Virus record (IMG/VR): IMGVR_UViG_2869924733_000007
Coordinates: 1-43,624 of that record
Direction: 5' to 3' (one strand)
DNA length: 43,624 nucleotides
Source: a virus
Taxonomy: Duplodnaviria; Heunggongvirae; Uroviricota; Caudoviricetes
Below the pieces are notes generated by a model that did not search any database, was not told the DNA's origin, and saw nothing but the letters and a program-made list of their open reading frames with translations. A program made the position numbers and the translations under genes. Shown here piece after piece: positions 25,541-25,851 of the stretch. Within the stretch, counting starts at the first letter, position 1, and every line of letters starts with the position of its first letter.

Positions 25541-25617
25541 GGCCCTTTAGCTCAGTTGGTCAGAGCGAGCGACTCATAATCGCCAGGTCGCTGGTTCAAG
25601 TCCAGCAAGGGCCACCA
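25541..25617 (+). tRNA. tRNA with CAT anticodon, Ile2 (lysidine)-like
   Basis: Cloverleaf: acceptor ggccctt/aagggcc, T-arm gctgg-ttcaagt-ccagc, anticodon loop ctCATaa, 3' CCA; resembles recalled ileX/ileY. Confidence 0.7.
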
Positions 25618-25618
25618 A

Positions 25619-25695
25619 CCACCACTAGCTCATCCGGATAGAGCATCAACCTTCTAAGTTGACGGTGCGAGGTTCGAGTCCTCGGTGGTGGGCCA
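25619..25695 (+). tRNA. tRNA-Arg (anticodon TCT)
   Basis: Acceptor ccaccac/gtggtgg, anticodon stem tcaac/gttga with loop ctTCTaa, T-arm cgagg-ttcgagt-cctcg, 3' CCA. Confidence 0.65.
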
Positions 25696-25697
25696 GC

Positions 25698-25773
25698 GCC
25701 GACTTAGCTCAGCAGGCAGAGCAACTGACTTGTAATCAGTAGGTCACCAGTTCGATTCCGGTAGTCGGCACCA
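25698..25773 (+). tRNA. tRNA-Thr (anticodon TGT)
   Basis: Acceptor gccgact/agtcggc, anticodon stem actga/tcagt with loop ctTGTaa, T-loop ttcgatt, 3' CCA. Confidence 0.65.
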
Positions 25774-25776
25774 TAT

Positions 25777-25851
25777 GCGGGCATCGTATAATGGCTATTA
25801 CCTCAGCCTTCCAAGCTGATGATGCGGGTTCGATTCCCGCTGCCCGCTCCA
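25777..25851 (+). tRNA. tRNA-Gly (anticodon TCC)
   Basis: Acceptor gcgggca/tgcccgc, anticodon stem tcagc/gctga with loop ctTCCaa, T-arm gcggg-ttcgatt-cccgc, 3' CCA. Confidence 0.65.

Follow-up and report, generated by a model that had tools for sequence, protein, structure and literature searches.

A four-tRNA cluster in a defective Rac-like prophage is probably a small stable-RNA operon for minor isoacceptors

Introduction

We describe a cluster of four tRNA genes in a 43,624-nucleotide stretch of viral DNA (IMG/VR record IMGVR_UViG_2869924733_000007), hereafter the window, which is a Rac-like lambdoid prophage of a genome of the Shigella/enteroinvasive Escherichia coli (EIEC) type. The cluster is probably a small stable-RNA operon of the prophage, with a promoter of its own, which constitutively supplies four minor isoacceptors and can be expressed in the lysogen. 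The evidence consists of the genes themselves, their identity elements, their homology to phage and host tRNAs, a conserved promoter motif and the enrichment of the cognate codons. The cluster is of a known and widely annotated kind, i.e., the tRNA cluster found in lambdoid and Shiga toxin (Stx) prophages at the junction between the Q gene and the lysis genes. Its anticodon set, which is annotated in public records, is often found as a modular alternative to the Stx trio.

Results

Four intact tRNA genes in tandem

Exactly four tRNA genes were called by ARAGORN in the 43.6-kb window. All of them are + strand genes within positions 25541-25851. Their scores below are those of the Rfam tRNA model.

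25541-25617, + strand: tRNA-Ile2 (CAU), called by ARAGORN, 70.5 bits; predicted AUA reader of the ileZ lineage
25619-25695, + strand: tRNA-Arg (UCU), called by ARAGORN, 56.4 bits; predicted to read AGA and weakly AGG, on the phage argN scaffold
25698-25773, + strand: tRNA-Thr (UGU), called by ARAGORN, 69.8 bits; predicted to read ACA and its wobble partners, a mimic of thrU
25777-25851, + strand: tRNA-Gly (UCC), called by ARAGORN, 64.9 bits; predicted to read GGA/GGG, equal to host glyT

An earlier note on this DNA had proposed four tRNA genes here with good cloverleaf structures. The ARAGORN coordinates and anticodons agree with it exactly, and none of the structures was rejected by the predictors. 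All four genes exceed the gathering score of 29 of the Rfam model RF00005, and over the whole window their E-values range from 1e-9 to 1e-13. Because these scores and E-values are so strong, chance is excluded for the four calls. Each gene encodes its CCA end, the spacers between the genes are 1, 2 and 3 nucleotides (nt) long, and no conserved tRNA position is mutated in any of them. In E. coli, a 100% identical cluster is labeled tRNA-Ile/Arg/Thr/Gly by the NCBI Prokaryotic Genome Annotation Pipeline (PGAP).

The first gene (slot 1) has a CAU anticodon, and its identity to the K-12 genes is 71/77 for ileY and 69/77 for ileX, compared with 54/78 for metT. It has C4-G69, C5-G68 and A73, as does ileX, whereas metT has U4-A69 and A5-U68. 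Ikeuchi and colleagues are said to have found in 2005 that TilS tells tRNA-Ile2 from tRNA-Met by C4-G69 and C5-G68. By these features slot 1 is predicted to be tRNA-Ile2 of the lysidine type, not tRNA-Met, which bears out the description "Ile2-like" in the earlier note and agrees with the PGAP label. It is nearly identical to ileZ of Stx2 phages. The pair 27-43 is A.C in the window tRNA and G.U in the host.

The second gene (slot 2) is only 58/79 identical to argU and is not its orthologue. It contains A20, C35, U36 and G73, with the D-loop AUCCGGAUA and the anticodon loop CUUCUAA. The identity set of the E. coli arginyl-tRNA synthetase (ArgRS) consists of A20, C35, U/G36 and A/G73. Slot 2 is thus predicted to be a canonical tRNA-Arg(UCU) with all ArgRS identity elements, from a divergent phage lineage. 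It has an unusual C1-G72 pair, and its scaffold is that of argN in Stx phages. Over 33 distinct homologues, 97.4% of the cells of the cloverleaf are paired and 6 pairs show compensatory changes. As a control, none of 500 shuffles (0/500) matched either the observed percentage of pairing or the covariation score, and slid registers gave only 29-54%.

The third and fourth genes (slots 3 and 4) are close to host genes. The Thr gene is identical to K-12 thrU at 74/76 positions, with U16C and U20C, both in the D-loop, as the only differences, and it has the G1-C72, C2-G71, G35 and U36 of the thrU type. The Gly gene is identical to K-12 glyT at 75/75 positions, including U73, C35 and C36. In the host operon thrU-tyrU-glyT-thrT-tufB these two genes stand in the same order. 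In contrast to that operon, the window has no tyrU, no 116-nt spacer and no thrT, and its flanks and spacers are unrelated. Similarity to the thrU-tyrU-glyT-thrT region ends 1-2 nt from the mature tRNA ends. Since the homology stops there, and since tyrU and the spacers are absent, the Thr-Gly pair is not a recently copied host block; a direct transfer of DNA from the thrU-tyrU-glyT operon is ruled out. Either the pair was acquired long ago and has been held by selection, or gene conversion has kept the copies alike.

A conserved promoter motif stands directly before the cluster

The following signals were found around the cluster.

25423-25453, + strand: predicted intrinsic terminator upstream of the tRNA promoter; hairpin of 13 pairs whose core is GCCCGC/GCGGGU, then a U run, -18.2 kcal/mol (ViennaRNA)
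25503-25531, + strand: predicted tRNA operon promoter; -35 TTGCAG (25503-25508), 17-nt spacer, -10 TATTAT (25526-25531)
26110-26135, + strand: candidate terminator of the tRNA transcript, from the terminator scan; 7-pair hairpin followed by TTTTTGT, -12.1 kcal/mol
26464-26500, + strand: strong predicted terminator directly before the holin gene, from the terminator scan; 10-pair stem followed by TTTTTTCTTT, -17.3 kcal/mol

A promoter scan matched the same promoter site, which it read as TTTGCA-18-TATTAT. Between the -10 element and the first base of tRNA-Ile2 there is a 9-nt G+C-rich discriminator (tctgcctcc). When upstream sequences from IMG/VR were anchored on the 5' end of the tRNA, 66 distinct sequences gave the consensus TTGCa-N17-TtATtAT-ctGCgCcC at a fixed distance, while the flanks further upstream varied. 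Such a layout is that of a stable-RNA promoter and would imply transcription that is independent of Q, with a leader of a few bases. We infer a transcription start at about 25537-25540.

The upstream hairpin at 25423-25453 was not listed by a simple consensus terminator scan. Similar G+C hairpins with T runs are found 5' of the tRNA promoter in PPompW, in PhiR47_1 and in several IMG/VR contigs. We tentatively assign the 26110-26135 terminator to the tRNA operon. Together with the one at 26464-26500, it would keep the tRNA promoter from driving the lysis genes.

The earlier note had placed the cluster at the late-regulatory position at which lambdoid and Stx phages have tRNA genes of the ileZ/argN/argO type. 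The homology with those clusters holds (slots 1 and 2 are 88-90% identical to those of Stx2 and PPompW phages, with the same promoter), but the tRNAs need not be late genes, because the cluster has its own promoter. In the stricter form of the late-gene idea, the tRNAs are made only in the Q-antiterminated late transcript of the lytic cycle, as proposed for stx, and the upstream promoter is non-functional. The cluster does lie in the path of late transcription from pR', with Q (or its replacement) before it and the lysis genes after it. In addition, a TTGCAA-17-TTCAAT motif at 25341-25369 precedes the upstream terminator, and after this motif comes a stretch, about 75 nt long, that ends at the hairpin. 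An isrK-like Rfam match at 25378-25451 falls within this stretch, below threshold (19.9 bits compared with a gathering score of 50). Even so, we consider the strict form highly improbable, since the -35/-10 pair keeps its distance in the 66 sequences while the sequence further upstream varies, the discriminator is of the stable-RNA type, and a strong terminator separates the promoter from upstream transcription.

The region 25341-25451 could itself give a short transcript of the pR'/tR' type. The isrK-like and Trp-leader-like Rfam matches at 25367-25454 are far under their gathering scores and were not used as evidence for this.

A long hairpin was also observed at 25955-26065 (+ strand; stem about 25970-26050), about 120 nt 3' of tRNA-Gly. 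It has about 27 near-perfect pairs and a folding energy of -48 kcal/mol (z = -6.6 against shuffles), and Rfam gives only weak miRNA-precursor-like matches. It overlaps the start of an unsupported open reading frame (ORF) at 26032-26289. About 25 of the relatives compared also have it, for the most part those with a cluster of the window type. As a guess, the transcript may be processed here by RNase III, or the hairpin may act as a barrier that keeps the tRNA transcript apart from the late transcripts. The ORF at 26032-26289, between the tRNAs and the holin gene, was not treated as a gene: it has no Pfam or PHROG match, and PGAP makes no call there in a relative.

A proposed route from promoter to decoding

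For the stable-RNA operon we suggest the following sequence of steps. A sigma-70 promoter with a G+C-rich discriminator would fire a few bases 5' of tRNA-Ile2 and give one precursor that carries Ile2(CAU), Arg(UCU), Thr(UGU) and Gly(UCC). Because the genes are 1-3 nt apart and all encode CCA, cleavage by RNase P at each 5' end would also free the preceding tRNA, and an exonuclease would trim the remaining trailer of 1-3 nt. TilS would have to turn C34 of the slot-1 tRNA into lysidine. The four products would then act as extra copies or mimics of the minor isoacceptors of the host (ileX/Y, argU, thrU and glyT) and would read AUA, AGA(/AGG), ACA and GGA. These codons rank among the most over-represented ones in the prophage genes, in the cargo (trkG, and to a lesser degree ipaH) and even more in the A+T-rich genes of the Shigella invasion plasmid. 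Since the promoter would not depend on Q and is preceded by a terminator, the cluster could be expressed in the lysogen even though the prophage is defective.

The four cognate codons are enriched

Codons were counted in 22 ORFs of the window that do not belong to insertion sequences (IS) (6,229 codons), in a reference of 42 K-12 genes (14,790 codons) and in 34 genes of the ipa-mxi-spa entry region of the invasion plasmid pCP301 (9,414 codons). Values are per 1000 codons, and the rank is that of the enrichment in the prophage over K-12.

ATA: prophage 12.2, K-12 2.4 (4.9x, rank 3/61); entry region 33.8 (13.4x over K-12)
AGA: prophage 8.5, K-12 1.2 (6.5x, rank 2/61); entry region 17.7 (13.6x over K-12)
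ACA: prophage 15.4, K-12 5.4 (2.8x, rank 4/61); entry region 21.4 (3.9x over K-12)
GGA: prophage 12.8, K-12 6.0 (2.1x, rank 8/61); entry region 15.2 (2.5x over K-12)

For the four codons, Fisher tests of the prophage against K-12 give p values from 1e-6 to 7e-17. Four codons drawn at random would all fall in the top eight with p of about 1.3e-4, a value that overstates the significance since codons are not independent of base composition. The most extreme gene is trkG, with ATA at 34.6, ACA at 20.4 and GGA at 24.4 per 1000. Enrichment in ipaH is moderate (ATA 10.5, AGA 7.0, ACA 15.8 and GGA 7.0). The counts fit the earlier suggestion that the tRNAs may supplement translation of AT-rich cargo. 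Of the cargo genes, trkG is strongly enriched, and ipaH only moderately and not for GGA.

These counts fit the codon-supply explanation proposed for the tRNAs of phage SfI (PMC3636060). That paper states that ACA makes up 17.3% in the phage and 7.1% in the host (PMC3636060).

Several points weigh against codon supply as the role of the cluster. The enrichment is largely a result of the lower G+C content of horizontally acquired DNA, and the enriched codons CGG, TCA and CGA have no tRNA in the cluster. In ipaH, where enrichment is only moderate, GGA stands at 7.0 per 1000 compared with 6.0 in K-12. In a comparative study, lambdoid phages with 2-3 tRNA genes were neither better nor worse adapted in codon usage than those without (PMC4631060), and defence evasion, not codon supply, has recently been argued to be one main reason for phage tRNAs (PMC12445682). 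In addition, we infer the transcription start, processing, modification, aminoacylation and any fitness benefit.

The cluster is one form of a modular family

The four-slot cluster occurs in 603 of 5426 complete E. coli genomes, counted where at least 80% of the 311-nt query is covered. About 9 E. coli genomes have a 100% identical cluster, several of them in more than one copy, and the genes together with the promoter are 100% identical in 21-23 IMG/VR contigs. Shigella/EIEC genomes keep 2-3 such clusters, with three in Shigella flexneri SFBU1023. Among 119 listed IMG/VR contigs with this Ile2 lineage, 57 have the trio Ile2-Arg(UCG)-Arg(UCU), 29 have Ile2-Arg(UCU), 17 have forms containing Lys(UUU)-Thr, and 5 have the arrangement of the window. 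Among 119 listed IMG/VR contigs with a direct Thr-Gly junction, 50 are of the Lys type, 28 of the window (Arg) type, and 17 have Thr-Gly only. In the GTDB species representatives, S. flexneri SFBU1023 and 'E. coli' ECMA0423 have three of these junctions each, and single ones were found in Citrobacter braakii, in Enterobacter hormaechei and in a host operon of Photobacterium. The earlier note was right that the anticodon set differs from that of the ileZ-argN-argO trio, though the set is a common alternative arrangement and not a rarity.

One close system is the ileZ-argN-argO trio of Stx2/933W phages, names that follow GenBank annotation. Besides the near-identical Ile2 and the C1-G72 argN scaffold in slot 2, it shares with the window a TTGCAx-17-TATTAT promoter. 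The trio lies after Q and before the cargo and lysis genes, and the site of the window cluster probably corresponds to this. In contrast, slot 2 of the window has UCU, G73 and A3-U70, whereas argN has UCG and U73; the Thr(UGU)-Gly(UCC) pair replaces argO, and no stx genes follow. Phages of the 933W type carry three tRNAs (PMC4631060). A full-text literature search returned no relevant paper on the ileZ/argN/argO genes of Stx phages or on Stx-phage tRNAs and rare codons.

Also close are the Ile2-Lys(UUU)-Thr-Gly clusters of E. coli prophages (e.g., PhiR47_1 and vB_EcoS-689R5), which share the four slots, the spacing, the Thr-Gly module and the promoter, at 93-95% identity. They differ in slot 2, which has UUU, an unusual C33 and U73, and in their Thr, which is 76/76 identical to thrU, whereas Thr of the window type has C16/C20. 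In SfI, Sf6, ST64T, PS3 and P21, genes for the Asn(GUU) and Thr(UGU) tRNAs lie downstream of Q (PMC3636060). These lambdoid phages of Shigella, Salmonella and E. coli, which we compared by description, have tRNAs at what is probably the same position, including Thr(UGU). Codon supply was likewise proposed as the reason for their tRNAs (PMC3636060), but the partner tRNA is Asn. The tRNA sets of the lytic phages T4 and T5, which serve against tRNA-targeting defences, also contain copies of host tRNAs, including Thr(UGU), and the C16 of the window Thr is shared with the T5 variants. The T5 variants are substituted at the nuclease cleavage site, in contrast to Thr and Gly of the window.

Some relatives show further variation. 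The anticodon on the slot-2 scaffold varies among relatives (L007, 3095-3170, L008, 3095-3171, and many IMG/VR loci, e.g., L069 and L114): it is UCG in Stx2 argN and UCU in the window, and many E. coli prophages have UUU ('Lys'). The scaffold with UUU has C33 for the near-universal U33, together with U73, and does not have the site of the nuclease AriB. In a few contigs the loop is 5 nt long or otherwise aberrant, and ARAGORN then gives Phe(aaa), Leu(taa), Stop(tta) or undetermined. Slot 3 is labeled Lys instead of Thr in two matches (H76 and H77), as known from annotation. In a second copy of the cluster in E. coli CFSAN029787, VL46, RMDEC364 and RMDEC332 (H35-H38) and in an IMG/VR contig (L213), the fourth slot is annotated as tRNA-Val, and for L213 ARAGORN gives the anticodon TAC. 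This gene, also known from annotation, looks like a glyT-like body with an altered anticodon. The metagenome contig Ga0209545_100368 (L243), which is endosymbiont-like with 26% G+C, carries at 3386-3741 thrU-tyrU-glyT-thrT, between murB and secE-nusG-rplK. The thrU of this contig shares its C16/C20 D-loop with the phage Thr of the window, and the tRNA genes there do not encode CCA.

The prophage around the cluster is decayed

The main genes on either side of the cluster are the following.

7087-7386, - strand: Gam-like RecBCD inhibitor (PHROG 259, E = 5.5e-54)
24776-25333, + strand: anti-repressor directly upstream of the cluster (Pfam ORF6N; PHROG 2379, E = 1e-91)
26531-26746: holin (Pfam/PHROG)
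26746-27243: lysozyme (Pfam/PHROG)
27228-27704: Rz (Pfam/PHROG)
27824-29299: TrkH-family gene, trkG (Pfam/PHROG)
38297-40012, - strand: ipaH E3-ligase gene, adjoining the small RNA (sRNA) CssrB

With the ORF6N gene on one side and holin, lysozyme and Rz on the other, the cluster lies between the antirepressor and lysis modules, as had been described. The left arm of the prophage encodes an integrase, an excisionase, the sRNA RalA, RecE, Rha, a cI-like repressor, YdaT and replication genes. The sRNAs SraC/RyeA and SdsR/RyeB are at the left edge beside the integrase (463-607), RalA, the RalR antitoxin, is near the excisionase (3324-3502), and the Shigella sRNA CssrB is directly beside ipaH (40141-40323). 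On the 3' side of the TrkH-family gene there are the small and large terminase subunits, a portal gene, a tail-fibre remnant and ipaH. The head genes are broken off at 33880, and of the tail only the tail-fibre remnant is left. The prophage is defective. No ORF of the Q family was recognised in the window.

Much of the window consists of IS elements. A compound IS of 2,487 bp is present in five copies (3839-6325, 15111-17597, 22095-24581, 33880-36366 and 40337-42823) that are 99.8-99.9% identical. It is an IS3-family element (orfA, HTH_Tnp_1, 122 aa; orfB, rve, 272 aa) into which an IS30-family element is inserted (transposase with HTH_38 and rve, 383 aa), and the composite recurs as a unit. 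Two of the copies, at 22095-24581 (- strand) and 33880-36366 (+ strand), are inverted and bracket the segment with the anti-repressor, tRNA, lysis, trkG and terminase genes. There are also two IS630-family copies and one IS4-like element.

Comparison with the closest E. coli prophage, that of strain FDAARGOS_944, indicates what has happened upstream of the cluster. Homology is lost from 18222 to 25331 and resumes at 25332. In FDAARGOS_944 a DUF1367-DUF1364-DUF1133 block ends just before the tRNAs, and the end of its DUF1133 gene coincides with the point (25332) from which homology to the window resumes. In the window, IS elements occupy the place of this block together with a C4 antisense RNA (24640-24724) and the ORF6N anti-repressor. 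The ancestral upstream neighbour of the cluster was probably a Q-region gene, which here appears to have been replaced by IS elements and the C4/anti-repressor module. This module is one of two immI-like antisense modules in the window. One (10597-10785, - strand) consists of a C4 RNA and isrK upstream of the Rha/Ash gene. In the other, the a1b1 target/isrK part (22036-22138) is split from the C4 RNA and the ORF6N anti-repressor because of the IS insertion at 22095-24581.

Given this decay, the tRNA genes could be neutral passengers, left over from a once-active phage and with no present role for the bacterium. The state of the prophage speaks for this: it is riddled with IS elements, no Q is recognised, the head genes are cut, and the tail is a remnant. 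However, the four genes and their promoter are intact amid this heavy disruption and are unchanged in other genomes and in the 21-23 IMG/VR contigs, none of the conserved tRNA positions is mutated, and two to three clusters persist in Shigella/EIEC genomes. We therefore regard a mere passenger as quite unlikely.

Counter-defence as a possible alternative role

Another possibility is that the tRNAs replace or shield host tRNAs that are cut by the defence nucleases of rival prophages or satellites. In particular, Thr(UGU) would be a substitute for thrU that is a poor substrate of AriB, the nuclease of PARIS, because of U16C. Two papers of 2025 show that AriB has host tRNA-Thr(UGU) among its prime targets and that this tRNA is also the lethal target when P2-OLD is activated by lambda Gam (PMC12409363, PMC12445682), and the Gam-like gene of the prophage is of the type that triggers P2-OLD. 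U16C, one of the two changes in Thr, 'significantly impaired AriB cleavage' in tRNA-Lys, and T5 tRNAs carry C16. Phage-borne copies of thrU vary recurrently at 16, 20 and 59, and also at 42-43 and 27-28, where the changes destroy the CNG motifs required by P2-OLD. Furthermore, slot-2 Lys(UUU) of the sister clusters has no AriB site UAAUCA.

The genes of the window argue in the other direction. Its Thr keeps the full anticodon arm of thrU, in which the AriB site U36AAUC|A41 is present, as are both CNG motifs. With anticodon arms identical to those of thrU and glyT, Thr and Gly do not qualify as nuclease-resistant tRNAs; only the distal U16C matches a change reported to impair AriB. Gly, being 100% identical to glyT, cannot be a resistant variant. 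The effect of U16C on AriB was shown for tRNA-Lys, not for tRNA-Thr, and escape from PARIS took resistant Lys, Thr and Asn tRNAs together, whereas the cluster has neither Lys nor Asn. Over-expressed host thrU gives little or no rescue of P2-OLD toxicity. Positions 16, 20 and 59 are the least constrained in tRNAs, and the C16/C20 thrU in the chromosomal operon of the 26% G+C endosymbiont-like contig indicates that these changes may be neutral or inherited. Counter-defence is thus a reasonable hypothesis for the family of clusters and an unlikely, minority possibility at this locus.

Two narrower candidates were set aside. Resistance of the window Thr to P2-OLD is ruled out on sequence, since neither CNG motif is changed and the 5-pair stem is intact, and the tRNA is predicted to be sensitive. 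C16/C20 as a phage-specific adaptive mutation is weakened by the same D-loop in the chromosomal thrU of the endosymbiont-like contig.

Discussion

We favor the constitutive, self-promoted stable-RNA operon as the explanation for the Ile2-Arg-Thr-Gly cluster. A broader proposal combines both roles: both codon demand and tRNA-cutting defences would have shaped Ile2-X-Thr-Gly of lambdoid prophages as a cassette that can evolve, and the C16/C20 Thr of the window would be a partly AriB-resistant replacement of thrU in a lineage that encodes Gam. In such a cassette, the anticodon of slot 2 would change (UCG, UCU, UUU and odd loops) while the scaffold stays the same, and changes in the thrU mimic may gather at position 16, a modelled AriB contact, at 20 and 59, and at the CNG motifs cut by P2-OLD. 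We find the proposal unlikely.

For annotation, the default tRNA-Met call of the first gene is corrected to tRNA-Ile2. Because the cluster would have its own promoter, it can work in a dead prophage. The 2-3 copies of the cluster in Shigella/EIEC genomes would multiply the dosage of the scarcest host tRNAs, since ileX/Y amount to 2 genes and argU, thrU and glyT to 1 each. The leads that go beyond routine are the variants of the thrU mimic and the plasticity of the slot-2 anticodon in relatives. Though the concept is not new, the clusters may help Shigella to translate its A+T-rich virulence genes.

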